From: Candidatus Sericytochromatia bacterium
Lineage (GTDB): Bacteria > Cyanobacteriota > Sericytochromatia > S15B-MN24 > UBA4093
Reading direction: 5' to 3'
DNA: 64,000 nucleotides
NCBI GenBank assembly: GCA_036676495.1
Contig: JAKFCT010000047.1
Location: 43,879 to 107,878, forward strand
Part shown: piece by piece, positions 13,681 through 30,120 of the stretch
Position numbering within the stretch: the stretch's first letter is position 1
Layout of the letters: every line of letters starts with the position of its first letter
The notes under the pieces: model-generated
Told to the model about the DNA's origin: nothing
What the model saw: only the letters and a program-made list of their open reading frames with translations
Databases searched by the model: none
Made by a program: the position numbers and the translations under genes

Positions 13681-13921
13681 CGTTAAGGAACGCGCGATAA
13701 GCTGATTGCTTCTGGCACAGCCCTTCGCCAGGGGAGCGGCCTTCTCCAGGCTATCGCAACTGGCCGAAAAACCCTTGACCCATGACCGAGGCCACTTCTC
13801 GAAATCCCCCCTATCATCGAGGCGATTGCCTCCCGAGCCGCGGGGCCTCTCGGATGGGAGGTCGGGCTATGGGCGGACGCTCGAGGCGCGAGCCCCAGCG
13901 GGCATGTGCGAGGGCCGTTCG

Positions 13922-15171: not shown

Positions 15172-15186
15172 TCGGCTAGTAAAGGA

Positions 15187-16920
15187 GTGACCATGCCTCC
15201 GAACCTCCTGGTCCTGTGCGTCGATCAGTGGCAGCGCCACATGAAGTGGCCCCCCGGCTTTCGCTTACCGGCCGTCGAGCGCCTCGAGGCGCAAGGCGTC
15301 TCCTTCGATCGCTACTACTGCAACGTCCAGATCTGCACGCCCGCGCGGGCGACGATGTGGACGGGCCTCCATGCCAAGCAGGTCGGCCTCTGGGACAACA
15401 CCAACTTCGCCTGGATCCAGGAGCTGTCCCCCGAGATCGTGACCGTCGGGGACATGCTGCGCGAACAAGGCTACTACACCGCCTTCAAGGGGAAGTGGCA
15501 CCTCTCGAACCTGCCGCTCGACGAAAACGCGCTCGAGCCTTACGGCTTCTCGGACTACCAGCAATGGGGCGAGATGTACGGCAAGCCGCTGGAAGGGGAA
15601 CTCGCGGACGATACGGCCGCCTTCGAGACCATCGACTGGCTGGAGCACCGGGGCGCCCGGCTGAAAAAGCCTTGGATGCTCGTCTGCAGCCTGCTCAACC
15701 CCCACGACATCATGTTCCTCCAGTCGGATCCGCTCGAGACGCCGCACCCGAACGGGATGATCCACGGCATGCAGTCCCGCGTCCAGCAACTCGGGTGGTT
15801 CCAGAAGGACTGGGAGGTCGATTTGCCGGAGAATTTCGACGACGACCTCAGCCGCCAGCCCTATGGCGTCAGACACTTCAAGGAGTTCGTCGACCTCAAC
15901 TACGGGCGGATCCCCGATGAAAGGCCCGATCTCTGGCGGGTACGCCGGAACTACCTCCTCAACTCCATGCGGCTCGTCGATCGCGAGTTTCAGCGGATCC
16001 TGGAGACGCTCGATCGCCTCGACATGTGGAAGGACACAATCGTGATCCTGACGGGCGATCACGGCGAGATGAACGGCGCGCACCGGATGGCCCAGAAGGG
16101 CGCCATCACGTTCGACGAGGCCGGCATCGTCAACCTGACCGTCTGCGTTCCCGGCGGACCGCAGGGCCGGCGCACGGCCGCCGTCGGCTCGCACCTCGAT
16201 CTCGTCCCGACCCTGCTCGCCTTCGCGGGCATGACCCCGGAGGCGATCGCCGCACGCTACCCCCAGCTGAAAGGGCGCAGCCTGAAGGACGTGATCCTGA
16301 ACCCCGACCTCGACGGCCCGCACGGTAGCACCAAGCGGCCGGGCGACGGCGTGCTGCTGGGCTGGGAAGGCCTGCACCAGCTCGACAACGACTGGGCCAT
16401 CTCCGGCGCGCTGTGGGCCCTCACGGACCTGTCCCTGGTCGGACGCGACGAAACGCCGGAGGCGCTCCAAGCACGCCTGCGGGCCGCGGGCGAGCGGTAC
16501 GGCGCGCCTGACTTCAGCCGGCGAACCTTCTTCCGGGCCGTCATGGACGGTCGCTACAAGTTCGTGCGCTGGTTCAGCCCCCAGGAGTACACCCTGCCGA
16601 CCAGCATCGAGGCCTTGTACGCCACGAGCGACGTGGCCCTCTACGACCTCGCGGAGGATCCCGGTGAGCTGGAAAACCTGGGAGATCCCCGCCATTCCCG
16701 GCACGATCCGGAGCGCGTCACCCGCATGCTCGCCAAGCTGAACGCGCTGATCCGGCAAGAACTGGGGGAGGACCAAGCGCCGTTCGACCTCGATCTCTTC
16801 GGCACGCGCGAGGTGAAGTACCGCCAGCCGGACTCCTCGCTCCGGGTCTCCTGGGCTCCGCCGCAACCCGAACCCAGCCGCCACGAGGGGCGCCCCCCGC
16901 ATGAAAGGGCGGACGAATGA
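15187..16920 (+). CDS. Sulfatase-like hydrolase (Cys-type)
   Basis: CTPARATMWTG (CxPxR), GYYTAFKGKWHL, NPHD, GDHGEM. Confidence 0.9.
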   Translation: MTMPPNLLVLCVDQWQRHMKWPPGFRLPAVERLEAQGVSFDRYYCNVQICTPARATMWTGLHAKQVGLWDNTNFAWIQELSPEIVTVGDMLREQGYYTAFKGKWHLSNLPLDENALEPYGFSDYQQWGEMYGKPLEGELADDTAAFETIDWLEHRGARLKKPWMLVCSLLNPHDIMFLQSDPLETPHPNGMIHGMQSRVQQLGWFQKDWEVDLPENFDDDLSRQPYGVRHFKEFVDLNYGRIPDERPDLWRVRRNYLLNSMRLVDREFQRILETLDRLDMWKDTIVILTGDHGEMNGAHRMAQKGAITFDEAGIVNLTVCVPGGPQGRRTAAVGSHLDLVPTLLAFAGMTPEAIAARYPQLKGRSLKDVILNPDLDGPHGSTKRPGDGVLLGWEGLHQLDNDWAISGALWALTDLSLVGRDETPEALQARLRAAGERYGAPDFSRRTFFRAVMDGRYKFVRWFSPQEYTLPTSIEALYATSDVALYDLAEDPGELENLGDPRHSRHDPERVTRMLAKLNALIRQELGEDQAPFDLDLFGTREVKYRQPDSSLRVSWAPPQPEPSRHEGRPPHERADE

Positions 16921-16964
16921 GCACGGGAACCGCGGGGAGGGGCCGGCGGCGATCGCCCACCCGC

Positions 16965-16993
16965 TTGACGCCAAACACTGTTCGGCTTATAGT
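16965..16993 (+). promoter_or_regulatory. Sigma70-type promoter with TetR operator in its spacer
   Basis: TTGACG-17 bp-TATAGT; the spacer contains CCAAACACTGTTCGG. Confidence 0.8.
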
Positions 16994-17000
16994 CTGGAGT

Positions 17001-17606
17001 ATGGCAAACGAAGCACCGCGCGATCGAAAGCGCCACCGCAGCCGCTCCCACATCCTGGCCGCGGCGCGCGAACTCATCCTGGAGAAGGGGGCCGAGGCCC
17101 TCTCCTTGCGGGAGGTGGCGGCGCGCGCCGGCTACAGCCCCGCCAGCCTCTACGAGTATTTCGACGGCAAGGACGACCTCGTCGCGACCCTGGTCGCCGA
17201 GTCCCATGCGCGTCTCAATGCCCGCATGCGCGCCCTCCCCACGGCGCTTCCGCCCCCCCGACGGCTGATTCGCCTGGGCCAGGCCTACCTGGCCTTCGCG
17301 CGCGAGAACCCCGAGGACTTCGCCCTCTTCTTCGGACGCACCCCCTCGAAACGTCAGGCCGCAGCCGACCCCGTCACGGGAAGCGCCTACGAGGTCCTTC
17401 GCGACGCGGTGGTCGCGGGCCTGGAGGACGGCACCATGAGGCCCGAAGCGGGAGGGGATGCCGAGGAAATCGCCTACGGCTTCTGGGCCCTGGCCCATGG
17501 GCTGGCGACCCTGCAACTCACGCATCTGCGGGGCTTTCAGGCGGACTTCGAGGCCGCGGACCTCCGGGCCCTGGAAACCTACGTGGCCGGCCTCATGCCG
17601 CGCTAG
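17001..17606 (+). CDS. TetR/AcrR family regulator (WHG-like C-terminus)
   Basis: ILAAARELILEKG..ALSLREVAARAGYSPASLYEYFDGKDDL; FWALAHGLATL. Confidence 0.92.
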   Translation: MANEAPRDRKRHRSRSHILAAARELILEKGAEALSLREVAARAGYSPASLYEYFDGKDDLVATLVAESHARLNARMRALPTALPPPRRLIRLGQAYLAFARENPEDFALFFGRTPSKRQAAADPVTGSAYEVLRDAVVAGLEDGTMRPEAGGDAEEIAYGFWALAHGLATLQLTHLRGFQADFEAADLRALETYVAGLMPR

Positions 17607-17631
17607 GACGGCTCTTTTTATTTACGCAAAA

Positions 17632-17646
17632 CCGAACACTGTTCGG
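17632..17646. promoter_or_regulatory. Second TetR operator, perfect palindrome
   Basis: CCGAACA-C-TGTTCGG just before the SD of the next gene; 14/15 identical to 16971-16985. Confidence 0.8.
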
Positions 17647-17659
17647 AGAAAGGACCGGT

Positions 17660-19165
17660 ATGACCCCGACCTGGTTTCGTTTCTGGTTGTTCCTGGGCGC
17701 AGGCCTGCTGATCGCCGCCCAAATGCGCTGGCCCGTCTTCCTCGCAGGCTGGCTCGCTCCGCTGCCCTTCCTGATCGCCCTGCGGCACCGCCGCACGGCT
17801 CGACAGGGCTGGGAATGGGTAGCCGTCTACATGCTCGCCTGGGTTGCGGCGACGCTCAAGATCATCACCCCGCCCCTATCCCCCTTCATGGCCTTGGGCT
17901 TCGCCCTGCCCATCGGCCTGATTCACATGCCCGCCTTCTGGCTCTGGGATCGCCTGGTCCGCAAGGGGCAGCACGCCTGGGCGATCCTGGCGTTCGCGAG
18001 CGCCACCGCGGTGCTGGAATGGCTGCAAGCGACCTTCACCCCGCTGACGTCTTGGGGAGCGAGCGCCCTCACCCAGCTGGACAACCTGCCGCTCCTGCAA
18101 CTCGCCGCACTCGGTGGCCTCCCCCTGCTGGCCCTCCTGTTGAATGCGCTCCCCGCCACGCTGGAGTGGGCCGGTTCGCGCGCCTTCGATCGGCGTAGCC
18201 GCTGGGCGCTGGCCCTGTTTGGCCTGCTGTTCCTGGTCGCCCATGGCTGGGGAACGCTGCGCCTGGCGACGCCGCTTGCCGGCCCTCAGGTGCGCGTGGC
18301 CGCCGTGGCCACTGACGCGCGCTTCTCGGGCCCGCCCTTACCCGGTGCCGCCGAGGTGAAGCAATTCGAGCGCACCCTCTTCGAGCGGACCGAAAAGGCG
18401 GCAGGAATGGGCGCGCGGCTGGTGGTCTGGCCCGAAGGCTCCACCTTGGTCCAGACTTCCCAAGAAGCCGAGTTCCTGGCTCGGGTCTCCGAACTGGCCC
18501 GCCGCCTGCATGTCGAGCTGATCGCCGCTTACGTCGTCCCGCTCTCGGATCAGCCCTTCCGGTACGAGAACAAATACCACTGGTTCGACGCCGAAGGGCG
18601 GGACCGCGAAACCTACTTCAAGCACGTGCCGGTGCCTGGCGAGCCCGCGGTGGCCGGCACGAGCCCACATAGGGCCCACCAGGCTCCATGGGGGCGCATG
18701 GCCGGGGCCATCTGCTACGACTACGACGTGCCGCCTCTCGCCCGAACGCATGCACGCCTTGGAGTGGACCTGGTCGCCCTACCCTCCTCCGACTGGGCCG
18801 GGATCGATCCGATTCACACCCAGATGGCCGGGATCCGGGCCATCGAAGGAGGCTTCTCGCTGCTTCGCTCGACCCGCTTGGGCCTCTCCGCAGGGATGGA
18901 TGCCCATGGCCGCATGCGTGCATGGATGACGGACCTTGAGCCGAACGAGGGAGTCATGCTGGCCTCCTTACCCATGCAGCGGCTGGCGACCCCCTACAGT
19001 CGCTTGGGCGATTGGGTGATCGTGCCGAGCCTCGCCGTGCTCACCCTCGTCTTCGGACGGCTCTGGACCATGCGGCGGCGCCGGTGGGGGGCACGCGTCG
19101 CGGATCTGGCCCCTGAGCGCGCCGCCCTGGAGCCCGCCCAAGGCGGACGGCGCCCATCCGTTTAG
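17660..19165 (+). CDS. Membrane-bound carbon-nitrogen hydrolase, apolipoprotein N-acyltransferase (Lnt)-like
   Basis: N-terminal TM bundle; nitrilase triad motifs VWPEG, YFKHVPVP, ICYD. Confidence 0.8.
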   Translation: MTPTWFRFWLFLGAGLLIAAQMRWPVFLAGWLAPLPFLIALRHRRTARQGWEWVAVYMLAWVAATLKIITPPLSPFMALGFALPIGLIHMPAFWLWDRLVRKGQHAWAILAFASATAVLEWLQATFTPLTSWGASALTQLDNLPLLQLAALGGLPLLALLLNALPATLEWAGSRAFDRRSRWALALFGLLFLVAHGWGTLRLATPLAGPQVRVAAVATDARFSGPPLPGAAEVKQFERTLFERTEKAAGMGARLVVWPEGSTLVQTSQEAEFLARVSELARRLHVELIAAYVVPLSDQPFRYENKYHWFDAEGRDRETYFKHVPVPGEPAVAGTSPHRAHQAPWGRMAGAICYDYDVPPLARTHARLGVDLVALPSSDWAGIDPIHTQMAGIRAIEGGFSLLRSTRLGLSAGMDAHGRMRAWMTDLEPNEGVMLASLPMQRLATPYSRLGDWVIVPSLAVLTLVFGRLWTMRRRRWGARVADLAPERAALEPAQGGRRPSV

Positions 19166-19187
19166 AAGCCCGTCACCTCAGCCCCCT

Positions 19188-19235
19188 CGAGACAGAGCCA
19201 CCGACCTTGAGTTTAGGGTCGGTGGCTCTGTCTCG
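19188..19235. terminator. 19-bp perfect stem-loop
   Basis: CGAGACAGAGCCACCGACC ... GGTCGGTGGCTCTGTCTCG. Confidence 0.6.
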
Positions 19236-19282
19236 TGCGCACGCTTGCTTCGAACTTGCCTCTTTCCCACCCATGTATTACG

Positions 19283-19300
19283 ATTCACCATATAGTGAAT
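19283..19300. promoter_or_regulatory. ArsR/SmtB-type operator
   Basis: ATTCAC-CATATA-GTGAAT inverted repeat in an AT-rich patch upstream of the methyltransferase-SmtB-ATPase genes. Confidence 0.65.
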
Positions 19301-19339
19301 TGATTGATTCGTGTCACCATGTCGAGCAGAGGTTTCTCG

Positions 19340-19981
19340 ATGAAGAACCAGACCAACGTGACCAAGTACCGCATCCTTGCCCCCATATACGACCGCCTCA
19401 TGGGGCATCGCCTCTTTCGTGCGGCCAGACGGCGCGCGATCGGCCTCCTGGCGATCGCCCCCCGCGATCGCGTTCTGCTTGTCGGGGTTGGTACGGGCGA
19501 GGACTTGCCGTTTCTTCCTCCGACGGCCAGCGTCGTCGGGATCGACCTCTCCGAGGAGATGCTCGCGGTCGCGCGCGCGAAGTCCCCCGCCGTCGAGTTG
19601 CGGGTCATGAACGCCGAAAAGCTGGAGTATCCGGAGTCCTCGTTCGATAAAGTCGTCCTCAACTTGGTGCTGAGCGTCGTCGAACATCCCGAGCAAGCTC
19701 TGGCGGAGGCCCTGCGCGTCCTCAAGCCGGATGGCCGGATCGTCGTTTTCGACAAGTTCCTTCCGGCGGGCGAAACGCCCCCATGGGCCCGGCGGATGCT
19801 CAATGTCATCACCTCATGGGTAGGAACCGACATCAATCGGCGCTTTGATGACCTGAGTAGAGGGCTGCCACTGCAGAAGGTGTCGAGCGAACCCTCCGTC
19901 TTCGGGGGAAGCTACCAGCTCATCCTGCTTGGTAAGCGCAACACCCCGGTCTCACGACCTGAAGCCACGTCCCCTCGCTAG
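19340..19981 (+). CDS. Class I SAM methyltransferase (PmtA-like)
   Basis: VLLVGVGTGEDL, GIDLSEEML, EALRVLKPDG, GTDINRRF. Confidence 0.82.
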   Translation: MKNQTNVTKYRILAPIYDRLMGHRLFRAARRRAIGLLAIAPRDRVLLVGVGTGEDLPFLPPTASVVGIDLSEEMLAVARAKSPAVELRVMNAEKLEYPESSFDKVVLNLVLSVVEHPEQALAEALRVLKPDGRIVVFDKFLPAGETPPWARRMLNVITSWVGTDINRRFDDLSRGLPLQKVSSEPSVFGGSYQLILLGKRNTPVSRPEATSPR

Positions 19982-20002
19982 GGCGCGATCAAGGAGCGGA
20001 TC

Positions 20003-20371
20003 ATGCAAGACACCAAACCCAGCGCGGATAGCTGCGAGATCTCCTACGTCCACGGGGAGACCGTCGAAGCGATCACCGCCGACATGCCCCCTCGAGAAGC
20101 CGTCTTCGCGATGGCCGAGACCTTCAAGCTATTGAGCGATCCCACGCGCCTCAAGCTCGTCCACGCCCTTTCGCGCGGCGAGCTCTGCGTCTGCGACCTG
20201 GCCGCAATGCTGGGGGTGGGCAGCACCGCAGTCTCGAACCATCTCCGGCTGCTTCGGGGCATGCGGCTGGTCAACTACCGGCGCCAAGGCAAGATGGCCT
20301 ACTACTCACTCGCCGATGGGCACATCACCCGCCTGCTGGCCGAATGCCTGGACCACGTCCAGGAACTTTGA
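20003..20371 (+). CDS. ArsR/SmtB metal-sensing repressor (CadC/ZiaR-like)
   Basis: FKLLSDPTRLK, ELCVCDL, VSNHLRLLR; alpha5 site DGH-x10-H-x2-E. Confidence 0.92.
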   Translation: MQDTKPSADSCEISYVHGETVEAITADMPPREAVFAMAETFKLLSDPTRLKLVHALSRGELCVCDLAAMLGVGSTAVSNHLRLLRGMRLVNYRRQGKMAYYSLADGHITRLLAECLDHVQEL

Positions 20372-20391
20372 CGCATCGGAGTAAACAACCT

Positions 20392-22518
20392 ATGGCAACG
20401 ACGTCCACCACGACCCGCTTCCATCTCAAGGGGGTTTGCTGCGCAAACGAGGTCTCTCAGGTCGAGCGGAAGCTCTCGACGTTGGAAGGCATCGGCCTGG
20501 TCAAGGTCAACCCCGTGAGCTTCCAGATGACGGTCACCCATGAGACGCCCGTCGAAACCATCCAGCAGGCGATCGGCGACCTCGGCTACACGGCCGAGCC
20601 TCTGCGAGGCCAACCGATCGAGCAAACCGCTCCCCCCAGCTTCTGGTCGCAGCATGGCCAAAAACTGGCGACCGTCATCTCGGGCCTGGCCGCGCTCGCG
20701 GGCTGGCTCACCTCCCTTCGGTGGGGCGAGTCCCATGCCGGGGTCATCGGGCTTTTCGCCCTGGCGACCGGGGTGGGCGGCTTCCAGACCTTCCGACAGG
20801 GACTGCGCTCGATCCGGGCGCTGAGCTTCGACATGAACGCCCTGATGACCATCGGGGTCACCGGAGCCATCTTGATCGGGGAGTGGGCCGAGGCGGGGGC
20901 GATCGCCTTCCTGTACGCGGTCAGCAACGGGCTTGAAGCCGCCGCCATGGAGCGGACGCGGACCTCCATCCGTGGGCTCATCGAGATGGCTCCCAAGACC
21001 GCTCGAATCAAGGGGTGCAGCGGCGAAGCCGAGGTGCCGGTCGAAGAGATCGACCTCGACGACATCCTCGTGGTGCGGCCCGGCGAAAAGATCGCCATGG
21101 ACGGCGTTGTCCTCGAAGGCCAATCCTCCGTCAACCAGGCCCCCATCACGGGCGAGTCGATTCCCGTTGCGAAGACATCCGGCTCCGAGGTCTTCGCCGG
21201 CTCCGTCAACGGGGCAGGGGCGCTGGAAGTCCGCGTGACCAAGCGCGTGGAGGATACGACCCTCGCGCGCATCATCCACATGGTGGAGGATGCTCAAAGC
21301 GAGCGTGCGTCGGTTCAATCCTTCGTCGATCGCTTCGCCATGCGCTATACGCCGGTCGTCATGGGGCTCGCTCTGCTGGTCGCCCTCGTCCCGCCCCTCT
21401 TCGGCCAACCCTTGGATGTCTGGATTTACCGCGCCTTGGCCCTCATCGTGCTGGCCTGCCCCTGCGCGTTGGTTGTCTCGACCCCCGTCGCCCTGGTGGC
21501 AGGCATCGGAAATGCCGCCCGCCATGGCGTCCTCATCAAGGGTGGGACGCACCTGGAGCAGGGGGCGAGTATCCGCGTGCTGGCCTTCGATAAGACGGGC
21601 ACGCTGACCCAGGGGCGCCCAGAGGTTCAGAGCGTCATCGCGCTGGGAGGGCGTAGCGACGCGGAGGTCCTGCGCCTCGCGGCATCCGTCGAAGCACGCT
21701 CCGAGCACCCGCTCGCGGCGGCCATCCTGCGCCATGCGGAGCGTACGATCGGCTCGCCTCAAGCAGGACAGGCCTTCGAGGCCATCATCGGACATGGCGC
21801 GAAGGCGGAGGTCGACGGACGCCTCCTCTTCGTGGGCAGTCCCCGCTTCTTCGAGCAGCGGGGAACGGCGCTCGGGGAAGCCGGCGCCCATGTCACGCGC
21901 CTTCAAGCGGCCGGAAACACGGTCGTGCTCCTGGGCGACGAACATTCAGTTTACGGTCTCATCGCCATCGCCGACCCCGTGCGTCCCGAAAGCCGAGCGA
22001 TCGTGGCGGAGCTCAAGCGAATGGGGATCGCCCGGGTGGCCATGTTGACGGGGGACAACGCCCGCACCGCCCAGGAGATCGCGACGCAAATCGGGGTGGA
22101 CGAGGTCCGGGCCAACCTGCTGCCCGAAGACAAGGTCGCTGCCGTCAAGGACCTCGAAGCCCGATTCGGGCGCGTGGCCATGGTCGGAGATGGCGTCAAC
22201 GACGCCCCGGCGCTCGCAACAGCAAACCTGGGCATCGCCATGGGAGCGGTCGGCACCGACGTCGCCATCGAAACGGCCGACGTGGCGCTCATGAGCGACA
22301 ATGTCCGACGCATCCCGTTCACGATGCACCTGAGTCGCCGGACGATGCGGATCATCCGCCAGAACATCGCCTTCTCCCTGGTGGTGAAGTTCGTCGCCAC
22401 GGTGCTGGTTTTCCCGGGCTTGCTCACGCTCTGGATGGCGGTCCTCTCCGACATGGGGGCGACGATTCTGGTCGTGCTCAACGCCCTGCGACTCCTCGCC
22501 ATCAAACCCGCGGAATAG
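20392..22518 (+). CDS. cadA: P1B-type heavy-metal (Zn/Cd/Pb) translocating ATPase
   Basis: ITGES, CPC, DKTGTLT, SEHPL, GDGVNDAP; N-terminal HMA domain GVCCANE. Confidence 0.92.
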   Translation: MATTSTTTRFHLKGVCCANEVSQVERKLSTLEGIGLVKVNPVSFQMTVTHETPVETIQQAIGDLGYTAEPLRGQPIEQTAPPSFWSQHGQKLATVISGLAALAGWLTSLRWGESHAGVIGLFALATGVGGFQTFRQGLRSIRALSFDMNALMTIGVTGAILIGEWAEAGAIAFLYAVSNGLEAAAMERTRTSIRGLIEMAPKTARIKGCSGEAEVPVEEIDLDDILVVRPGEKIAMDGVVLEGQSSVNQAPITGESIPVAKTSGSEVFAGSVNGAGALEVRVTKRVEDTTLARIIHMVEDAQSERASVQSFVDRFAMRYTPVVMGLALLVALVPPLFGQPLDVWIYRALALIVLACPCALVVSTPVALVAGIGNAARHGVLIKGGTHLEQGASIRVLAFDKTGTLTQGRPEVQSVIALGGRSDAEVLRLAASVEARSEHPLAAAILRHAERTIGSPQAGQAFEAIIGHGAKAEVDGRLLFVGSPRFFEQRGTALGEAGAHVTRLQAAGNTVVLLGDEHSVYGLIAIADPVRPESRAIVAELKRMGIARVAMLTGDNARTAQEIATQIGVDEVRANLLPEDKVAAVKDLEARFGRVAMVGDGVNDAPALATANLGIAMGAVGTDVAIETADVALMSDNVRRIPFTMHLSRRTMRIIRQNIAFSLVVKFVATVLVFPGLLTLWMAVLSDMGATILVVLNALRLLAIKPAE

Positions 22519-22663
22519 GGCCATGACCTGCGGCTGTACCGCCCCCCTGGCGGCAAGGCCCTCGAGGACGGCGGAACAAAGCGCGAGGAGATCCCTTCGC
22601 TAGTCGGACGGAGGGTGGCTCAAGCCTTCGAGCGGGAGCTACCGCAGACGTCGCCCAGTCGCG

Positions 22664-23701
22664 CTAGGCCTTCAGGAAGGCAGAAAACGCCTTGAAGAGT
22701 AGGGTTTGAGCAGCATTGGGAATCGATTGATTGATCATGCAAGCGCCCGAGATCCGATGGCCTTCTGCGGTGAAGGACCAACACGCGACCGAATAGCCCG
22801 GTCCTTCCCCGTTGTGGCCGACAACCCGGCCAAATGGCATGGTCTCGACCATCAGGCCGAGGCCATAGCGAGGGTCTCGGCCCAGGGAAACCGCCCCTGG
22901 AACCGGGACCGCGGAGAGCATCTGCCCCAGCCAGAAGTCACCCAGCAAGCTGCCATTCGTCACTCCCTCCATGAGCCTGGCAAGCTCCAGGGCGGTCGAG
23001 CGAACAACCCCATGGGAGACCCAGCCTGGATCGTAGCGCGCAATGAGGTTCTCTCGGTCAGGGCCCCCCTCAAACCCGGGAGTCAAGTCGCTGGCATCGG
23101 CACGGCGAGAGGCGAACCGTGTCTCGGTCAAGCCGAGGGGAACCACGATCCGGGAAGCCAAGCTCTCGTCAGGGGTTTGGCCACCGGCCGCCTCGATGAT
23201 CCGGCGGATCAGCATGTAGCCGAGGTTCGAATAGCTCCAACCCTGCCCCGGCGCGAACAACAGCGTCGCGTCCGACAGCAACTCCATGAAACGGCTCGGC
23301 TCCCAAGCCGTCTCTGGAGATGTCCGAACCGCTTGTCGGTAGCGCGACATCCCACCGTAATCCGGCATGCCACTTGTGTGGTTAAGCAGCTGGCGCACGG
23401 TAATGGGGGCTAGGACATGTAAATCGGGAAGCCAGGCGCGGATAGGACTATCGAGTTCGAGGCGGCCCGCTTCCGACAACTGCAGCGCGAGGGTGGCCAG
23501 CACCGACTTAGTGACGCTGTAGGCATAGAACTTGGCATCGGGTCGTTCCGCCAGCTCGCCAATCCCCACCCTGAACTTGGCCTCGCCATCGACGAGCAAG
23601 GCCACGGTGGCTCCAAGCGCGCCCGTCTCGACCAGCGACTGTTCGAGGAGCGCGTGAAGCGGGATGCTCGATGGATTTACGCGCGGAAACTCGGGGGGCA
23701 T
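22664..23701 (-). CDS. Serine hydrolase, beta-lactamase/D-Ala-D-Ala peptidase family
   Basis: YSVTK (SxxK), LLNHTSG, YSN, GHNG; GAGGAG before ATG 23701. Confidence 0.85.
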   Translation of the reverse strand: MPPEFPRVNPSSIPLHALLEQSLVETGALGATVALLVDGEAKFRVGIGELAERPDAKFYAYSVTKSVLATLALQLSEAGRLELDSPIRAWLPDLHVLAPITVRQLLNHTSGMPDYGGMSRYRQAVRTSPETAWEPSRFMELLSDATLLFAPGQGWSYSNLGYMLIRRIIEAAGGQTPDESLASRIVVPLGLTETRFASRRADASDLTPGFEGGPDRENLIARYDPGWVSHGVVRSTALELARLMEGVTNGSLLGDFWLGQMLSAVPVPGAVSLGRDPRYGLGLMVETMPFGRVVGHNGEGPGYSVACWSFTAEGHRISGACMINQSIPNAAQTLLFKAFSAFLKA

Positions 23702-23810
23702 CAAGAACTCCTCGAGGACCAAACTACGACCGGATACCTGGGTGCCGAATACGCGGCTCCCCTGTCGGTGGGCAAGGGCACCGAGGAAGGGATGGGATAA
23801 CCGGTGTTGA

Positions 23811-23872
23811 ACGTTGAACCGGAAGTGCATGACGTTGCACGTATTGTCGGTTCAATGGTTCGAGGGGCCACT
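23811..23872. repeat. att-like site C: ychF 3'-end copy plus arm motif
   Basis: ACGTTGAACCGGAAGTGCATGACGT is 24/25 identical to ychF 28363-28387; GTTCAA-TGG-TTCGAG-G-GGCCACT starts at 23850. Confidence 0.85.
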
Positions 23873-24013
23873 GTTTTGACCGTGAACGATCCGGCGAATG
23901 AGGCTCGCGCCATGGGGCCCTTCGCGAGCTACAAGCTGCCGAGCCTTGGGGGAGGGGACCATGATAGAATGCGGGGGCGCGCATTCGTGGTATCGGTGTG
24001 ATTTTGGGGAAAA

Positions 24014-26299
24014 GTGGCTCTGCAGCATGGGACATGGCTTAGGTTCCTGAGGTCGGTCCTACCCCGGGAGGCTCGTGGCGGCCGGGGGGGCTGGTCACTT
24101 AGCCTTCGCTCTCGCCTGTTGTTACTGGTCCTCTTTTCGGTCGTGCCGGCCATGGGGCTGATGGTCCGCTCGGCCGCCGAGCAGCGCCAGATGGCGCTGA
24201 ACGAGGCCCGCCAGAGCGCCTTTGCCCTCATACGACCCGCTTCTTTTCAATACGACCGCATCATCCAGGAGACTCGGCAGTTGCTGGTGCTCTTGGCGGC
24301 ACATCCCCAGTTGCTCGATCCGCGAAAGCCGGACTGTCACGAGTTCCTGGCCTCCGTGCGGGACAAGTACCCCTACTATGCCAACATCGCCATGCTCAAT
24401 CGCCAAGGGGAAGTCACGTGCAGTGCCATCCCGTTCTCCGGCAAGCTCGATTTGAGGCGATTGCCGCACGCCGAGCGCGCCATGCGCACCGGAGAGCTCG
24501 CCATCGGCGACTATGAGATCGGCCCCATCTCGAATCAGGCGGTGCTAGGCTTCATGTACCCGATTCGCGAGGCCGATGGGCGAATCACGGGGGTTCTGGG
24601 CGCCACGGTGCAATTGTCGTGGCTCAGTCAGCTGGCGGCGCAGGCCCACTTGCCGCCCGGATCAGCCGTGATGCTGGTGGATCACAACGGCAAGGTGCTC
24701 GCAGTCCAACCGCATCCGGAAGCGTGGGTCGGGAAGAACGTCGCCCGCTTGCCGGTCGTCCGGACGATCCTCGAACAGAAGTCCGGGGTGGTCGAGGGGC
24801 TGGGGCCGGATGATCAAGAGCGACTCTATTCGTTTTCCCCCTTGGGAGGGGATCCCGACGTCCCCAGCGCCTACCTGGCGGTCGGAATTCCCCGTCAAGT
24901 GGCCTTCGCCAAGGCCGACGCGATGCTCGGCCGCAACCTGGCAGGCATGGGGTTGATCGGCTTGTTCAGTTTGCTCGTGGCCTGGATCATGGGCGATTGG
25001 TTCGTGTTACGCAAGGTTCAGACGCTGATCAATGCCACCAAACGCCTGGCGAGCGGAGACTTGAGCGTTCGGACCGGCATGCCCCGAGGGGGCGATGAGT
25101 TTGCGCGGCTGGCCTTCTCGTTCGACGAGATGGCCGAGGCCCTCGAAGGCCTCACGCAACGCTACGAGCTGATCCTGAATTCGGCGGGAGAGGGAATCTA
25201 CGGCGGCGATCGCGACGGCGTCATCCAGTTCATCAATCCGACCGCCGCACACATGGTCGGCTACGAAGTCGAGGAGTTGGTCGGCCGGAACGGACATGCG
25301 CTGCTTCATCACTCCCGACCGGACGGGTGCCCCTATCCTGCCTCCGAGTGTCCGGTGCTTCAAACGGTGCAGGACGGCCGGGTCCGTTCGGTGACAGACG
25401 AGGTATTCTGGCGCAAGGACGGCTCCATGTGTCCAATCGAATACCTCGTCTCCCCCATCCGCAAGGGCGGTCACATCGTGGGCGTCGTGCTCCTCATCAA
25501 GGATCTCAGCGAGCGGAGGAAAGCCGAGCTGGAGCAAACCCGGCTCAAGAGGCGCGAAGAGGCCGCCCACGCCGAGCTTGAGGCGGTCAAGCAGCTTGAT
25601 GCCATGAAGAACAACTTCGTCAACGCCGTCTCCCACGATCTCCGGACGCCCCTGACCTCCATCATGGGCTATGCCGAGTTCCTCGACGAGGAGATTGCGG
25701 GGCCTCTGACGCCCCAGCAGCGCGACTTCATCACCCAGATCGAGCGAGGCGCCAAGCGGCTCGAGTTCCTGGTCAACGATCTCCTCGACTTCGCCCGCCT
25801 GGACGCCGGGACCTTCGCGCTGCGACGGGAACCCATCGACCTGCGTACCGCCATTCAAGCAATCAGCGAGAGCGCCCAACCGCAAGCGGCGGACGCCCAC
25901 GTCGCCATCCAGGTCGATTTGCCGGACGAGTCTTTGGTCGCCATGCTGGATGCGCCCCGCATCGAACGCGTGCTGTCCAATCTCCTCAGCAATGCCCTCA
26001 AATTCTCGCCAGCCGGCGGTACGATCCGGATCCGGGCCTACAACGAGGCCGGTTCGCTGTATGCCGAGGTGGTGGATCAGGGCCCCGGCATCATTCCTGA
26101 GGACCTACCGAAGTTGTTCCATCGCTTTGCTCAGCTTGCGGATGGCCAGCGCAAGGGTGGGACGGGCCTCGGCTTGAGCATCAGCAAGGCGATCATCGAG
26201 GCGCATGGCGGCCAAATTGGGGTGCGCAGCCAGGTGGGCGTCGGCAGCACGTTCTGGTTCCGGGTACCGCTCGATGTGGCGGACAAGGGGGCCGCGTGA
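24014..26299 (+). CDS. Sensor histidine kinase (Cache-HAMP-PAS-HisKA-HATPase)
   Basis: Two TMs flanking a Cache-like domain, HAMP (GDLSVR..DEF..LA.SF.EM), PAS (FWRKDGS..PIEY), SHDLRTPLT, NLLSNALKF, GGTGLGLSI. Confidence 0.92.
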   Translation: MALQHGTWLRFLRSVLPREARGGRGGWSLSLRSRLLLLVLFSVVPAMGLMVRSAAEQRQMALNEARQSAFALIRPASFQYDRIIQETRQLLVLLAAHPQLLDPRKPDCHEFLASVRDKYPYYANIAMLNRQGEVTCSAIPFSGKLDLRRLPHAERAMRTGELAIGDYEIGPISNQAVLGFMYPIREADGRITGVLGATVQLSWLSQLAAQAHLPPGSAVMLVDHNGKVLAVQPHPEAWVGKNVARLPVVRTILEQKSGVVEGLGPDDQERLYSFSPLGGDPDVPSAYLAVGIPRQVAFAKADAMLGRNLAGMGLIGLFSLLVAWIMGDWFVLRKVQTLINATKRLASGDLSVRTGMPRGGDEFARLAFSFDEMAEALEGLTQRYELILNSAGEGIYGGDRDGVIQFINPTAAHMVGYEVEELVGRNGHALLHHSRPDGCPYPASECPVLQTVQDGRVRSVTDEVFWRKDGSMCPIEYLVSPIRKGGHIVGVVLLIKDLSERRKAELEQTRLKRREEAAHAELEAVKQLDAMKNNFVNAVSHDLRTPLTSIMGYAEFLDEEIAGPLTPQQRDFITQIERGAKRLEFLVNDLLDFARLDAGTFALRREPIDLRTAIQAISESAQPQAADAHVAIQVDLPDESLVAMLDAPRIERVLSNLLSNALKFSPAGGTIRIRAYNEAGSLYAEVVDQGPGIIPEDLPKLFHRFAQLADGQRKGGTGLGLSISKAIIEAHGGQIGVRSQVGVGSTFWFRVPLDVADKGAA

Positions 26300-26759
26300 G
26301 CCCGTGACGGTGACATCCCTTGATCCTCGAGGCCAAAGCCCATGCGTCCTCTTCCCCATGAGCACGGGTTCGAAGGTGTGGAATTCCAGCTCGCGAACCG
26401 AACCGCATGGGGTTCCAGAGCAGTTTGAAGAGACCGCGCAGGCCAGCGCGCTGCCGTACGAGGCGGATTCCTTCGGCGACGATGCCCATGGCCGTTCCAT
26501 CATGCGGCCGTCCCGCGGGGACCTCAAGCGGCACCTGACTTTCCTCAAGGGCGAGTCCCGGCGTGCGCGCTTCGCGAAAGAAACATCCTGGGCTGAGTTC
26601 CTGCTTAGCCTGCCCGCCAAGTAAGTAGAGGGACAAGTAACGAGAGCCTGACGTGAAGCCGAGTTCCCGTTTGGTTCGCGGGTCGCCACGGCTCGGAGCC
26701 ATGCAAAGCGGGCAGAGCATCCAGCCACTCTGACCGCTTTGCATTGGGCTGCAGTTTAG

Positions 26760-26821
26760 ACGTTGAAGCGGAAGTGCATGACAACACCCTTTCGTACCGT
26801 TCAACACTTCGAGTGGCCACT
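26760..26821. repeat. att-like site B: exact ychF 3'-end copy plus arm motif
   Basis: ACGTTGAAGCGGAAGTGCATGAC is 23/23 identical to ychF 28363-28385 and reads VMHFRFNV-TAA on the minus strand; GTTCAA-CAC-TTCGAG-T-GGCCACT starts at 26799. Confidence 0.9.
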
Positions 26822-27053
26822 TCCCCTCGTAACGACGCCAACCCTCCTAGGCTCCAAGGGGTAGGGCGACGCAACGCTTCCTGGTACGTCGGCTCCTACG
26901 CAAACGGGTATCCGGCGCTCAAGCGATAGAACGCACGCCCCCGTTGTCCCAGAGGAATATGCCTAGCCCTAGGCGAAGCGGCGCAGATCGGTGGAGGGTA
27001 CGGGCGCGTGACTCCAGGCGGAACACTACAATGGCTATGCGAGGAGGGGACAT

Positions 27054-27509
27054 ATGCCTGAATCACGAGTCTCACGAACAACGGATACCCCGAAGGGTTC
27101 GCGAAGCATCCAGCTGGGCCTGCTGGTCCTGCATGTTTTCGTTTCGCTGGGAGCCCTCTATGGCGGAGGCCTCCTTAGCCTGTTTCCAGACGGCTCGGCC
27201 TTGGGCACGCCGCTGGAGATGCTGCGCTACACGCCCTTTCCGGACTTCCGGATACCCGGCTTGATTCTCTTCTGGGTCATCGGGGTCGGCCACATGGTCG
27301 CCGGCATTGCGATCATGCGGCATCCTGCAAGGGCTTGGTTGCTGACGGCGGTCATGGGGCTCGTGCTCATGGGCTGGATCGTGATCCAGGTCCTCTTGAT
27401 TCGCGGATCTCACGGAGTCCACTTCCTGTACTTCGGGCTTGGGCTTGTGATTTGCGGGGCAGGCGTCTCGCTTTGGCCGCGGATGAAAAGTCGGAGCAGG
27501 CGGGGATAA
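27054..27509 (+). CDS. Hypothetical 4-TM membrane protein
   Basis: GALYGG..L...PDGS.LG.P...L..TPF.DF.IPGLIL pattern; strong SD GAGGAGG. Confidence 0.7.
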   Translation: MPESRVSRTTDTPKGSRSIQLGLLVLHVFVSLGALYGGGLLSLFPDGSALGTPLEMLRYTPFPDFRIPGLILFWVIGVGHMVAGIAIMRHPARAWLLTAVMGLVLMGWIVIQVLLIRGSHGVHFLYFGLGLVICGAGVSLWPRMKSRSRRG

Positions 27510-27787
27510 GAGCGTCTTGCCGTACGTTGAGCCCCAAAGAGAAGGGCTCCGCCTCCTACGCCCACGCAATCGCGTGAGGGCGTTCCTCGTCGTTCGCCCA
27601 GATCGGGCCTCGAAACACGGCTGCCCCATGAACGCCGATAACGGCCGATCCCTCAGCCTGAGCACCACACTCCGAACAACACCCCCTTCGTTTTCGGGTG
27701 GTCGAGATTAGACGCAGAAATCGCGACGCCCTTTAGGCTGATCCGAAAAGGATTCGTGGCTCAACTCGTCGACGGGAGGCACTTAGG

Positions 27788-28345
27788 TTGAAGGAAACCA
27801 TTGATTCCGAGCTTCTGATTACGGCGCTCAAAACCGCCGGAGTCAAACTGGACCCAGGTCTAACCGACGCCGAAGTAGCCGCTATTGAACGCACCTTCGG
27901 GATACGCTTCCCACACGACCTCAAGAGGTTGCTACAACATGCCCTTCCGGTCGGCGACCGCTTTCCCAACTGGCGTCAGGATTCCCAAGAGCTTCGGGAC
28001 CAGCTCAATTGGCCGATTCAAGGGATCTTCTTCGATATCGAGCAGAGTGACTTTTGGTGGCCCGGCTGGGGAGCGAAGCCAGCGTCACTAACGGAAGCAT
28101 TGAGCATTGCAGCCGGTGAGTTGTGGCGCGTTCCAATCTTGATCCCGATCTACGGGCACCGCTACATTCCGATGGAACCCCAGGAATCGGGAAACCCCAT
28201 CTTCTCTGTGTACCAAACCGACATCATCTACCATGGTTGCAACCTCGCGGACTACCTTCACAACGAGTTTGCCTTGGATACTCCGACCGTCCCAAAGACA
28301 TCACCTCGCCCCATACGGTTCTGGGACGAGGTGATCGAGCGCTAA
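27788..28345 (+). CDS. SMI1/KNR4 (SUKH) family protein
   Basis: GLTDAEVAAIERTFGIRFPHDL, FPNWR, P.LIPIYGHRYIP, GNPIFSVYQTDIIYHG. Confidence 0.78.
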   Translation: MKETIDSELLITALKTAGVKLDPGLTDAEVAAIERTFGIRFPHDLKRLLQHALPVGDRFPNWRQDSQELRDQLNWPIQGIFFDIEQSDFWWPGWGAKPASLTEALSIAAGELWRVPILIPIYGHRYIPMEPQESGNPIFSVYQTDIIYHGCNLADYLHNEFALDTPTVPKTSPRPIRFWDEVIER

Positions 28346-28358
28346 TCGATATTGATAT

Positions 28359-29456
28359 CTATACGTTGAAGCGGAAGTGCATGACGTCGCCGTCCTTGAC
28401 CTCGTAGGTCTTCCCTTCGAGGCGAAGGAGGCCCTTCTCCTTGGCGGCGGTTTCCGAGCCGCAGGTGACCAGGTCATGGTAGGCGGTGACCTCGGCCCGG
28501 ATGAAGCCGCGCTCGAAGTCGGTGTGGATGACGCCGGCGGCGCCCGGAGCGAGCGTTCCGCGGGTGATGGTCCAGGCCCGCACCTCCTTGACCCCGGCGG
28601 TGAAGTAGGTGATGAGGTCGAGGATCCGGTAGGTCGAGCGGATCAGCTTATTCAGGCCGCTCTCGGCGACGCCCAGGTCCGAAAGGTACTCGACGGCTTC
28701 CTCGGGGCTGAGCTGGGCGAGCTCGGACTCGATCTGCGCCGAGATGGTGACGACCTCGGCCTTCTCGGAGGCCGCGAACTCCTTGACCTTCTGGACCAGG
28801 GGGAGGTTCTCGGCGTCGGCCAGGTCTCCCTCGGCCACGTTGGCGGCGTAGATCACGGGCTTGTTGGTGAGCAGGGGAACCTGCTTCATGATGACCAGCT
28901 CCTCGGGGGAGAGATCCGCCGTGCGCGCCCACTTGCCCTCATCGAGCTGGGCTTTGATCTTCTCGAGGACGTCGACCAGGGCGGCCGCCGCCTTGTCGCC
29001 GGACTTGGCAGGCTTGCGGTTGCGCTCGAGGATCTTCTCGACGGTGCCGAGGTCCGCGAGGGCCAGCTCGAGGTTGATGGTCTCGATGTCGCGGATCGGA
29101 TCGACTCCGCCCTCGACGTGGGTGATGTTGCCGTCCTCGAAGCAGCGGACCACCTCGACGATGGCATCCACCTCGCGGATATGCGCGAGGAACTGGTTGC
29201 CGAGCCCCTCGCCCTGGCTGGCGCCGCGCACCAGGCCGGCGATGTCCACGAACTCGATGGCGGTCGGGATGACGGTCGTGGTCTTGACGATGCCCTGGAG
29301 CACGCCGAGCCGCTCGTCCGGCACCGTGACGACGCCGACGTTCGGGTCGATGGTGGCGAAGGGGTAGTTCGCAGCGAGGGCGCCCGCCCGGGTCAATGCG
29401 TTAAAAAGGGTCGATTTGCCGACGTTGGGAAGGCCGACGATTCCTGCGCGAAGCAA
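28359..29456 (-). CDS. ychF: Ribosome-binding ATPase YchF
   Basis: GIVGLPNVGKST, ANYPFATIDPN, DIAGLV, GEGLGNQFL, IHTDFERGFIRAE, C-terminal DGDVMHFRFNV. Confidence 0.98.
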   Translation of the reverse strand: MLRAGIVGLPNVGKSTLFNALTRAGALAANYPFATIDPNVGVVTVPDERLGVLQGIVKTTTVIPTAIEFVDIAGLVRGASQGEGLGNQFLAHIREVDAIVEVVRCFEDGNITHVEGGVDPIRDIETINLELALADLGTVEKILERNRKPAKSGDKAAAALVDVLEKIKAQLDEGKWARTADLSPEELVIMKQVPLLTNKPVIYAANVAEGDLADAENLPLVQKVKEFAASEKAEVVTISAQIESELAQLSPEEAVEYLSDLGVAESGLNKLIRSTYRILDLITYFTAGVKEVRAWTITRGTLAPGAAGVIHTDFERGFIRAEVTAYHDLVTCGSETAAKEKGLLRLEGKTYEVKDGDVMHFRFNV

Positions 29457-29518: not shown

Positions 29519-29827
29519 TTACCACCCCGGAAGCCCCGAGACAAAGGGGCGCACCTCGTGATCGATCCGATCCGCCATGGCGTCCTCGGCCACGCTCAGG
29601 TCGTAGCGCTGCTGGAGATTGAGCCAGAGGGCGGGGGTGAGGCCGAAGAACCGGCCCAGACGCAGGGCCAGCTCGGCGGTGACGGGAGCGCGCCCCGCCA
29701 GGACGGCGCGGACGCGCGAGGCCGGGACTCCCAGTTCGCGGGCGAGCTGGGAAGCCGCGAGGCCGTAGGGGCGCATCAGCTCCTCGCGCAGGATCGCTCC
29801 GGGATGGAGAGGGGGCAGGCGCGTCAC
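29519..29827 (-). CDS. higA: HigA family antitoxin
   Basis: HPGAILREE, HTH, VTAELALRLGRFFG..P..WLNLQ..YDL. Confidence 0.9.
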   Translation of the reverse strand: MTRLPPLHPGAILREELMRPYGLAASQLARELGVPASRVRAVLAGRAPVTAELALRLGRFFGLTPALWLNLQQRYDLSVAEDAMADRIDHEVRPFVSGLPGW

Positions 29828-30120
29828 GGAGCGCCGTGCCCCGGAGCGACCAGCTCCACCTGGTAGGCGTCCCCGTCCATCCAGCGGAAGCGCAGGGTCC
29901 AGCCGTCGGCGATCGCCACCTCATGCTGCCCCTTATGCGATCCCCCCGCCAAGGTATGCAGCCGATTCTCCGGCAGGCGCTGGAGATCGGAAAGCCGCAC
30001 GGCGCTGTCGAGCAGCGCGAGCTTGCGCCGCGCGACGCGCATGATCTCAGGGGGCAGGTTCTGCGGGGGCCTCCGCTGAAACAGCGCCTCGGCCTCCGGA
30101 TCCCGAAAGGTCCTCAGCAT
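29824..30120 (-). CDS. higB: HigB/RelE-like toxin, possibly attenuated
   Basis: MLRTFRD....[16 protein letters not shown]...P.NRLH.L; upstream of higA with a 4-nt overlap. Confidence 0.75.

Follow-up and report, generated by a model that had tools for sequence, protein, structure and literature searches.

A lineage-wide hotspot of gene cassettes at the 3′ end of ychF in Sericytochromatia, with a defined dyad-symmetric site and no recombinase in cis

Introduction

The closest described counterparts of the locus reported here are the ssrA islands of Dehalococcoides and the cis-mobilizable elements (CIMEs). In the sections of McMurdie et al. 2011 (PMC3146451) drawn on here, the former lie in tandem downstream of an essential single-copy gene with a content that varies between strains, are marked by 20-bp repeats of the ssrA end, each directly preceded by a motif of 15 bp foreign to ssrA, and carry a serine-recombinase module next to attL in 16 of 31 cases, the other 15 lacking one and being discussed as cis-mobilizable. 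CIMEs, in the portion of the source used here (PMC5704250), have no integration or transfer genes and retain their att sites, standing in tandem at the regenerated 3′ end of a target gene, with the integrase of a related element thought to move them. In this work we analyze a stretch of 64,000 nucleotides (hereinafter the window) from a soil bacterium, Candidatus Sericytochromatia bacterium (assembly GCA_036676495.1, contig JAKFCT010000047.1, positions 43,879–107,878), in which the 3′ end of ychF recurs downstream of the gene between blocks of accessory genes. We describe the array as a lineage-wide hotspot. It has a defined site of dyad symmetry, which tracks the host ychF allele, and no recombinase in cis; on our best reading it is a new variant of tandem accretion. 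We favor, without great certainty, a history in which the blocks would have been inserted serially and site-specifically at an attachment site in the last ychF codons, the recombinase being supplied in trans.

Sericytochromatia are a little-known non-photosynthetic sister group of Cyanobacteria. Two further kinds of system bear on the comparison. Integrons and clusters of attC sites lacking integron integrases (CALINs) combine compact cassettes with imperfect palindromic sites, a single anchor, fast turnover and pairing that is conserved over sequence, the CALINs doing so without an integrase; their attC sites have the architecture R″(RYYYAAC)-L″…L′-R′(GTTRRRY) with a variable length of 57–141 nt, and integron cassettes are mostly single promoterless open reading frames (ORFs) co-oriented with the array. 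Xer-dependent elements, namely the integrative mobile elements exploiting Xer (IMEX) and the pdif modules of Acinetobacter, have small cargo without a recombinase and rely on a host enzyme acting at short dyad sites. The islands of Prochlorococcus are also said to be associated with repeated tRNA ends.

As for ychF itself, some pipolins with large serine recombinases integrate there (bioRxiv 10.1101/2024.05.22.595293), and a pneumococcal satellite prophage integrates upstream of the gene (PMC10383233). Both encode their own recombinases and belong to other phyla, and the parts of these two reports considered here describe no arrays. A thin search of the literature returned nothing on an array locus at the ychF end or on Sericytochromatia mobile elements.

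The 3′ End of ychF Recurs in Tandem

The anchor gene of the array, ychF (28359–29456, minus strand), codes for an intact protein of 365 aa with the expected Pfam domains (YchF-GTPase_C, 4.3e-39; MMR_HSR1, 1.4e-22), which terminates in VMHFRFNV followed by a TAG stop. The 23-mer ACGTTGAAGCGGAAGTGCATGAC at this genuine end (28363–28385, no mismatches) recurs without mismatches at 26760–26782 (copy B) and with one mismatch at 23811–23833 (copy A). These are the only three matches in the window at up to three mismatches, for which 100 dinucleotide-preserving shuffles gave a mean of 0.00. Copy B is directly followed by an in-frame TAA. Copy A is identical at 24 of 25 positions over 23811–23835, its single change being synonymous (CGC to CGG), and, unlike copy B and the genuine ychF end, has no following stop. 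The original prediction, made from the sequence alone, had described two exact copies and one 24/25 copy with a synonymous change, and the same coordinates were recovered in our analysis. It had also named occurrences of the 23-mer at unrelated loci as an observation that would count against it; a search of the whole genome (4,135,875 bases in 106 contigs) returned the same three places and no others.

Anatomy of the Arm+Core Site

Copies of the ychF end were collected from the window genome (G000) and its relatives, oriented in the ychF sense and aligned. The principal relatives are two congeners, G001 and G002, and two members of another genus of the same family f1, G005 and G008. A segment of about 44 nt that is foreign to ychF, hereinafter the arm, precedes each extra copy in the window and can be recognized in 14 of 15 such copies collected from these five genomes and G021; the exception, at position 580343 of G008, was excluded from the model described below. 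The arm has the consensus (GG)CCACTCGAA-N3-TTGAAC-N~6-GAAGTGC, then GAC or a variant thereof, and is followed by the core GTCATGCACTTCCGCTTCAACGT, usually with a stop after it. The whole site has a fixed length of about 67 nt. Within it, the inner arm motif GAAGTGC forms an inverted repeat with the core motif GCACTTC across an 8-nt spacer, GACGTCAT, while the outer TTGAAC faces TTCAA with an offset of 4 nt. The center of this dyad is the GT of the Val codon.

The pairing is specific to the register of the dyad: across 20 sequences 85.0% of the cells pair, against 21–44% when the partner is slid, with covariation not significant, and across 23 sequences, with family f3 added, 81.7% pair, against 23–42%. 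In the latter set, shuffling gives a mean covariation score of 0.137, compared with an observed 0.188 (reached by 1 of 500 shuffles), and double-change cells number 12 against 6.0 expected (3 of 500 shuffles), figures that relatedness alone produces in 5–25% of unconstrained alignments. These statistics lend moderate support to the view that the arm may co-vary with the core.

The f3 genomes provide a natural variant of the target. Their ychF proteins end in MEFRFNV, as opposed to MHFRFNV in f1; MEF was read in all five f3 3′ ends, with four of the genes ending in VMEFRFNV and that of G015 ending differently. Three of the four f3 arm+core copies have a core changed at the MEF codon, the fourth (G023) being degraded, and two of the four retain full arm–core pairing: in G019 the arm has AAACTCC opposite GGAGTTC in the core, and in G025 it has GAACGCC opposite GGCGTTC, yielding a perfect 9+9 palindrome around two bases. 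The displaced core of G025 no longer encodes Glu, yet the arm still matches it. As a separate observation, the f3 ychF genes (loci L055, L063, L064 and L065) have AT-rich final codons (AGA, often with TTT or AAT) in otherwise GC-rich genes, and the displaced f3 cores use CGG/CGC, TTC and AAC in place of these; this contrast might record an old replacement of the ychF end. We dropped the notion that the AT-rich last codons of G021 mark a fresh replacement, as the AGA codon is common to all f3 ychF genes.

Two lines of comparison bear on where an exchange would take place. First, G002 and G008 both have the variant core GCCCTTTCG / ACCTTTCCG joined to the yebC-like gene downstream of it, while the upstream arm of the DUF1801 cassette is followed by this variant core in G002 and by the canonical core in G008. 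Second, copies differ in the third base of the final codon and in their stop. The ychF end itself has a last codon with its own wobble base (GTA), a stop and an AT-rich flank unlike those of the other copies; wobble base, stop and flank were for that reason assigned to the adjoining cassette. The gene is intact, with a terminal wobble base, stop and flank specific to the cassette. As the variant core follows the yebC-like gene, and as wobble base and stop vary, the exchange is placed no further right than the first core bases, in or near GACGTCAT. We infer accordingly from the alignment that the crossover would fall in or near this spacer, with the 18-nt right half-site and the stop belonging to the following cassette. 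The last 9–10 codons and stop of ychF (28359–28390, minus strand) then make up a putative attB-like site, as suggested by comparison of the copies. Its right half-site is GCACTTCCGCTTCAACGT, and GGACGGC occupies the position at which the arm has GAAGTGC, so that the genuine ychF site resembles an attB in which a good half-site is combined with a poor one. The 8-bp spacer would suit a tyrosine recombinase and the central dinucleotide a serine recombinase. A conserved arm brought by the element and pairing as a dyad with the core has the anatomy of an attachment site rather than that of a chance or regulatory repeat. The arm, the arm–core dyad and the decayed copies discussed below are new relative to the original prediction.

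Distribution of the Site in the Class

A hidden Markov model (HMM) of arm+core was built from 14 copies and run with nhmmer. In the window genome its significant matches are confined to copies B and A and the ychF end. The prediction had proposed comparing the regions downstream of ychF in related genomes, and this comparison bore it out: four other genomes of the family, G001, G002, G005 and G008, each have several co-oriented ychF-end copies downstream of ychF, with nearly unrelated gene content between them. To these the HMM adds many decayed copies, about ten of them in G008. A covariance model yields 24 matches at E<=0.01, found in 9 of the 47 genomes of the class, i.e., the five genomes of genera g1 and g4 together with G019, G021, G023 and G025 of family f3, among which G019, G023 and G025 stood outside the training set of the model. 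All 17 of the model matches on ychF contigs are oriented with the ychF strand. Within the family of the window, genera g2 and g3 showed no arm+core sites. A scan of 185,579 species genomes with a strict arm+core pattern retrieved four stretches, each bearing the title Candidatus Sericytochromatia bacterium; beyond these, the pattern occurs on one metagenome contig and on no viral contigs.

This distribution, combined with the strict orientation, bears on the idea that arm+core is a cis-acting regulatory or structural repeat unrelated to mobility, such as a terminator, an RNA-stability hairpin or a sequence akin to repetitive extragenic palindromes (REP) or miniature inverted-repeat transposable elements (MITE). 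Single-strand folding gives a hairpin in 5 of 6 sense-strand copies, though the z-scores of −0.35 to −3.3 are modest and the genuine ychF end gives none, and the site often lies 10–30 nt after a stop codon. However, it is confined downstream of ychF, where it always takes the ychF strand whatever the orientation of the neighboring genes, includes a ychF coding fragment with its stop, lacks a T-run, has no Rfam match and bounds blocks of variable gene content. Unlike REP or MITE repeats, its copies are not dispersed, the significant ones in G000 lying in the ychF array only. We hence regard a regulatory repeat as very improbable.

We give still less credence to an artefact of assembly, to the point of treating it as negligible. 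The window comes from a metagenome-assembled genome (MAG) with a contamination of 6.68%, which could invite such a suspicion. However, the repeats, at 23–67 nt, are shorter than reads, and the same architecture is seen in eight other genomes and one metagenome contig. Moreover, a separate set of contigs from the probable source run spans copy A (piece 22000–25681) and copy B through the ychF core (25774–28392) with 0 differences, these contigs deriving from the same data as the window and hence not being independent of it.

Cassette Cargo and Its Turnover

We scanned 100 ORF translations from the arrays and their flanks with Pfam. Transporters include Cu-type P-type ATPase, chromate, SBF, Kdp and TauE proteins; the regulators comprise ArsR, TetR, PadR, Rrf2, ECF sigma factors, two-component systems and STAND/kinase proteins; and among the enzymes are GNAT and PLP enzymes, sulfatase, hydrolases and methyltransferases. 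Other cargo consists of Fic, HNH, DUF6883, Sel1, NHL/beta-propeller proteins and ferritin, to which MNT/HEPN and RelE-like pairs can be added from reading of the translations. Between 1 and 5 genes, in some cases more, make up a cassette; they lie in both orientations and have upstream regions of their own. Many cassettes measure 0.7–3 kb. The first two cassettes of the window are both antisense to ychF.

Turnover is fast at short distances: we found no orthologous cassette common to G000 and its congeners G001 and G002. Conversely, some old cassettes with arms are common across genera, namely a beta-lactamase-like gene (80% identity), DUF1801 (73%), a TetR+ADH pair (92%), a 154-aa gene and a yebC-like gene. 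A pair of congeners in f3 offers an insertion polymorphism: G025 has a RelE-like/helix-turn-helix (HTH) pair directly after ychF, while in G019 a cassette with MNT/HEPN genes and an arm+core precede the same pair, an arrangement that fits the insertion model. An ORF that seemed to read into the G019 arm proved to be the opposite-strand MNT/HEPN genes.

The array of G008 (L034:8498–12279) contains an archaeal/eukaryote-type prolyl-tRNA synthetase (ProRS), which was not found in the other genomes searched with that query, and an additional tgt gene with 73% identity to the core one of this genome. Such spare translation-related enzymes as cargo may point to inhibitor resistance. In G001, two DUF4172-Fic genes (L029:4227–5381 and L030:8592–9734) that are 80% identical each stand right after a core; the spacer of about 60 nt between core and gene is almost identical in the two and more conserved than the genes.

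These patterns of sharing could also be produced by homologous recombination only, i.e., strain-to-strain exchange following DNA uptake, with ychF and the ~65-nt repeats as anchors and the repeats themselves inherited and inactive. This would agree with the 84–94% identity of ychF between array-bearing genomes, with the 23–26 identical bases shared by their sites and with the presence of old cassettes across genera at about the divergence of ychF. However, 23–26 identical bases do not exceed the minimum that efficient RecA recombination usually needs, and such exchange leaves unexplained why unrelated cargo ends in the same arm, why the arm keeps its complementarity when the core changes, and why a cassette has its own last ychF codon and stop. 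We therefore consider it improbable as the sole maker of the arrays.

The Search for a Recombinase or Helper Element

The prediction that no integrase or transposase is visible in 11.7–28.4 kb holds up, and the absence extends to the relatives. None of the 100 Pfam-scanned ORFs has an integrase, resolvase or transposase domain of its own. In six-frame whole-genome searches of the five f1 genomes, neither PF00589 nor PF00239 matched a contig with a ychF array, that of the window included. The PF00589 search covered 14 genomes and likewise returned nothing on the f3 array contigs, while PF00239 was searched in the five f1 genomes only. PHROGs gave 0 matches for 10 array ORFs of obscure affinity. 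At a solitary site on G001:C55, whose neighboring ORFs code for ChrA, ArsA and NHL-repeat proteins, an IstB_IS21 annotation turned out to be a P-loop cross-match inside the ArsA ATPase rather than a transposase. An IS5-like transposase, recognized by eye, lies about 7 kb from the site on G023:C289.

Enzymes encoded elsewhere in the genomes furnish no clear candidate. The non-Xer tyrosine recombinases are not orthologous between genomes, with 25–60% identity in scattered pairs; the assembled genomes of G019 and G023 each have only two tyrosine recombinases, both Xer-like, and this pair is equally present in array-less relatives. No large serine recombinase was found in assembled G001 and G005. 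A resolvase-like protein of about 262 aa (G000:C22:19231–20019, minus strand) is conserved in the five array-bearing f1 genomes; by eye, it has a His for the catalytic Ser and is hence probably not catalytic. The Y1 HUH transposase (PF01797) is absent from G005, G008, G019, G021 and G025, all of them site-bearing, and shows no correlation with the arrays. We also set aside a dif-type site, as arm+core resembles neither the best dif-like candidate of G000 (C14:79631) nor canonical dif motifs. The arm was not found by blastn in plasmid and phage collections, in which only complete ychF genes on misfiled contigs were recovered. No helper integrative and conjugative element (ICE) or integrative and mobilizable element (IME) was found in 9 genomes, in a site-pattern scan of 185,579 species genomes, or in viral or metagenome contigs.

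Elsewhere in the window genome, G000:C67:20000–36000 (locus L043) has three tyrosine recombinase genes within 10 kb, with a dif-like motif (C67:35353) near the third; the locus may be a mobile element in its own right, one that makes use of a dif-like site.

The absence of a recombinase can also be read as ordinary decay, in which self-integrating islands or prophages with a ychF-specific integrase have since lost it, leaving remnants of the CIME type and no present in-trans system. There is a documented route of this kind to tandem arrays (PMC5704250, in the part used here), and the 15 of 31 ssrA islands of Dehalococcoides without an integration module show comparable segments (PMC3146451, likewise). 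The distal sites of the window are decayed, and the genomes compared are incomplete MAGs (82–100% complete), a kind of assembly in which mobile elements often stay unbinned. Against this, about 26 sites from nine genomes and a single metagenome contig are clear at nhmmer E<1e-5, and not one of them adjoins a recombinase; the youngest cassettes of G000, G001, G002 and G008, which are proximal to ychF and deviant in GC, also lack one. Many cassettes are 0.7–3 kb long, with one to three genes packed so tightly against the sites that there is no room for, or trace of, a lost integrase. Likewise, no integrase pseudogene fragment was detected on the array contigs, while the same six-frame searches caught fragments of 86–102 aa elsewhere. 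Ordinary decay is thus a possible account, one that we find distinctly doubtful. The prediction had left in-trans mobilization and integrase loss side by side; of the two we find the former the more probable, on indirect evidence.

The Array in the Window

The segments between the repeats are described here from ychF outward. Cassette 1, nearest ychF (26783–28362, GC 0.587), has three ORFs on the plus strand: a candidate membrane protein with four hydrophobic stretches (27054–27509), a 64-aa ORF (27517–27711) and a weak SUKH/SMI1_KNR4 match (27788–28345; Pfam 23.6 bits against a cut-off of 25.4, E 8.5e-5). No homologues of cassette 1 were found in the arrays of the relatives. Site B (26757–26823, minus strand; nhmmer E 7.3e-19 genome-wide) consists of the ~44-nt arm, the exact 23-nt ychF end and TAA. 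Cassette 2 (23834–26756, GC 0.634) comprises a histidine kinase gene of dCache-HAMP-PAS-HisKA-HATPase architecture by Pfam (24014–26299, plus strand), followed by a near-perfect palindromic hairpin of 58 nt just past copy B (26695–26752). A groundwater-metagenome contig contains the span 23925–26300 of this cassette with 197 differences. The sole Rfam match of the hairpin is a far sub-threshold microRNA, on both strands, and it is probably a bidirectional terminator. The predicted cargo therefore stands as regards the Cache histidine kinase and the membrane protein, while the SUKH gene is reduced to a match below the Pfam cut-off.

Site A (23809–23873, minus strand; nhmmer E 6e-16) has the arm and a ychF end with one mismatch and a lost stop. 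Beyond it lies an old cassette with a gene of the serine beta-lactamase family/esterase type (22664–23830, minus strand; Pfam Beta-lactamase 1.2e-50). Its ORF of 388 aa begins inside copy A; as its 80%-identical orthologue in G005 (G005_12) has only 353 aa, we judge the ORF probably over-extended, with the true start some 35 codons inside. G005_12 likewise has an arm+core behind it. A truncated arm remnant (22618–22642, minus strand; nhmmer E 0.22 on the region) follows about 20 nt after the stop of the window gene, and in pairwise alignment with G005 it aligns to the complete arm there, the homology that runs from upstream of the gene ending inside this arm.

The older part of the array (11823–22617, GC 0.653) codes for an SBBP beta-propeller protein (11918–13627), an SBF transporter (13906–15171), a sulfatase (15187–16920), an Lnt-like CN-hydrolase (16901–19165), a methyltransferase (19304–19981), an ArsR regulator (20003–20371) and a heavy-metal P-type ATPase (20344–22518). 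An HMM search of this part detected no internal arm+core site. At its far end, direct reading of the sequence reveals a decayed arm+core (11756–11822, minus strand), the 11785–11822 portion of which is the best non-array nhmmer match (E 0.17 genome-wide and 0.008 on the region) of a model built without it. This site lies 55 nt from the HAD-hydrolase gene of a conserved far flank outside the array, in which Pfam identifies a Crp-like regulator, a YdcZ exporter and the HAD hydrolase (9702–11701, plus strand), and whose homologues stand at the distal boundary of the variable region in G002, G005 and G008.

From ychF outward the GC content runs 0.587, 0.634, 0.628 and 0.653, with flanks of 0.664–0.666. 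The decayed site copies at 22.6 kb and 11.8 kb delimit the whole stretch of 11.8–28.4 kb as one array of accessory gene cassettes. The repeats stand as originally placed, and the array extends further than had been supposed, from about 11.76 to 28.39 kb. No tRNA was found in the window, and an Rfam scan of 11–30 kb gave nothing relevant.

On its upstream side, ychF is neighbored by genes for HigBA, an HTH protein and ribonucleotide reductase. The HigB-like toxin and HTH antitoxin pair directly upstream (29519–30120, minus strand) is also present in G002 and was not seen in G001, G005 and G008. On the other side, 2.7 kb beyond the far array end, is a 707-aa Toprim/Topoisom_bac topoisomerase with a rubredoxin-like C-terminal match (6956–9079, minus strand), for which no homologue was found in the regions of the relatives that were compared.

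Comparison with Described Systems

The likeness to the ssrA islands of Dehalococcoides, to the extent that the part of that report used here describes them, lies in the tandem segments, the target-end repeats and the motif beside each repeat, which is 15 bp there and about 44 nt here. Unlike those islands, no site here adjoins an integration module, and PF00239 is absent from the f1 array contigs; the cassettes are often much smaller, at 0.7–3 kb; and the site is a long imperfect inverted repeat with an arm that co-varies with the host ychF allele. The target, moreover, is the coding end of ychF rather than an RNA gene, and each cassette must consequently supply codons and a stop. With CIMEs the array shares co-oriented target-end repeats, a regenerated ychF, an element-derived arm at the junctions and the lack of integrase or transfer genes inside the segments. 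However, in the CIME cases described in the part of PMC5704250 used here, a functional ICE or IME with a matching integrase occurs in the same species, and none was found here.

The resemblance to integrons and CALINs rests on the compact cassettes, the imperfect palindromic sites, the co-orientation from one anchor, the fast turnover of content, the lack of an integrase that some such arrays also show, and a pairing within the site that is kept better than its sequence. In contrast to integrons, there is no IntI-type gene beside the anchor and no PF00589 match on the array contigs, the cassettes have their several genes in both orientations with their own upstream regions, and the anchor lies inside a coding sequence. 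Compared by eye with attC, the site is an imperfect palindrome with a bulge, has outer boxes TTGAAC…TTCAAC and a fixed length of ~67 nt, and does not show the order RYYYAAC…GTTRRRY. The small cargo modules without a recombinase of their own and the dyad sites are akin to those of IMEX and the pdif modules, from which the site is set apart by its dissimilarity to the dif candidate at C14:79631 and to the canonical dif motifs.

A Model of Serial Insertion at ychF

On the strength of the relatives, the conserved arm and dyad, and the lack of a recombinase in the array, the proposal that ychF acts as a repeatedly used landing pad finds support. We posit that rounds of site-specific recombination would have assembled the array, each acting on an attachment site within the last ychF codons. 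One end of each cassette would contribute its own ychF terminus, i.e., the right half-site GCACTTCCGCTTCAACGT and a stop, so that ychF would stay intact as the cassette brings these along. The other end would contribute the ~44-nt arm, the GAAGTGC of which would be the inverted partner of the half-site across the spacer. A new insertion at the ychF end would displace the earlier cassettes and their arm+core junctions outward, where decay would follow. The recombinase would act in trans, most likely from the chromosome or an unsampled helper element. Recombination as the maker of the array, the place of the crossover, the order of insertion and the supply in trans are in this model what we infer from the repeats, arm, dyad, co-orientation and turnover described above.

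Several observations weigh against serial insertion as set out here. The recombinase, its central actor, was not found in the searches made. The sites do not consistently decay with distance, as the four sites nearest ychF in G008 are the most degraded and decay in G001 and G002 is not monotonic with distance. A yebC-like gene stands directly after ychF both in the array-less G003 (genus g2) and in G005, with the sites beyond it; its position looks ancestral, and simple insertion at ychF would need extra rearrangements to account for it. G008_16 has an arm+core behind it in G008 and none in G002, and the proS cassette of G008 has a core remnant with no recognizable arm. Of the 7 inner positions of the G021 site, only 4 are complementary between arm and core, and the extent to which relatedness alone could yield the covariation figures tempers the case for an arm that tracks the core. 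The solitary arm+core at G001:C55 is the 1 of the 24 model matches that is clearly away from a ychF array, and on the L042 metagenome contig an arm+core (504–590) is inverted relative to ychF. Lastly, no circle or deletion junction at the cores was found in the assembled contigs of 4 runs, which is weak evidence since contigs drop rare forms; two long skips in the run contigs have sides of 21–24 letters and do not lie at sites, and many contigs from other runs stop matching at 28363, the end of the conserved gene. Reshuffling, inversion and deletion between sites could be the source of the misfit cases.

Regarding L042, the sequence on the far side of its core has similarity to an outer arm in inverted orientation (GAGCGGCC..TCG..TTGAA), and the ORF of a DEAD-box helicase ends inside the site. 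We had considered whether two head-to-head arms are present, and a recount resolved the site as a normal inverted arm+core with the extra similarity lying beyond the core.

A bolder version of the model is that the locus is an integron-like capture platform of a new kind, with its insertion point inside the coding end of ychF, at which a chromosomally encoded recombinase of an unrecognized family would insert, excise and reshuffle cassettes of one to a few genes across an order of Sericytochromatia, reading the ~67-nt cassette-borne site via its fold or dyad; the arm of G025, which matches its displaced core although that core has lost the ychF residue, points in this direction. We regard this as speculative and, on balance, unlikely.

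Biological Significance

The locus shows a route by which accessory genes are gained in Sericytochromatia. A single hotspot behind a universal gene takes in metal/oxyanion transporters, toxin–antitoxin pairs, immunity-type genes, sensors and spare housekeeping enzymes (ProRS and Tgt). It provides a searchable signature for such arrays, namely an arm joined to the last codons of a target gene and tracking the host allele, along with a defined substrate of ~70 bp with which the recombinase can be sought. Should the enzyme prove to be encoded by the host, this would represent a second, independent invention of an integron-like capture system, and it might also be a compact means of site-specific integration into a conserved gene that leaves the gene undisrupted.

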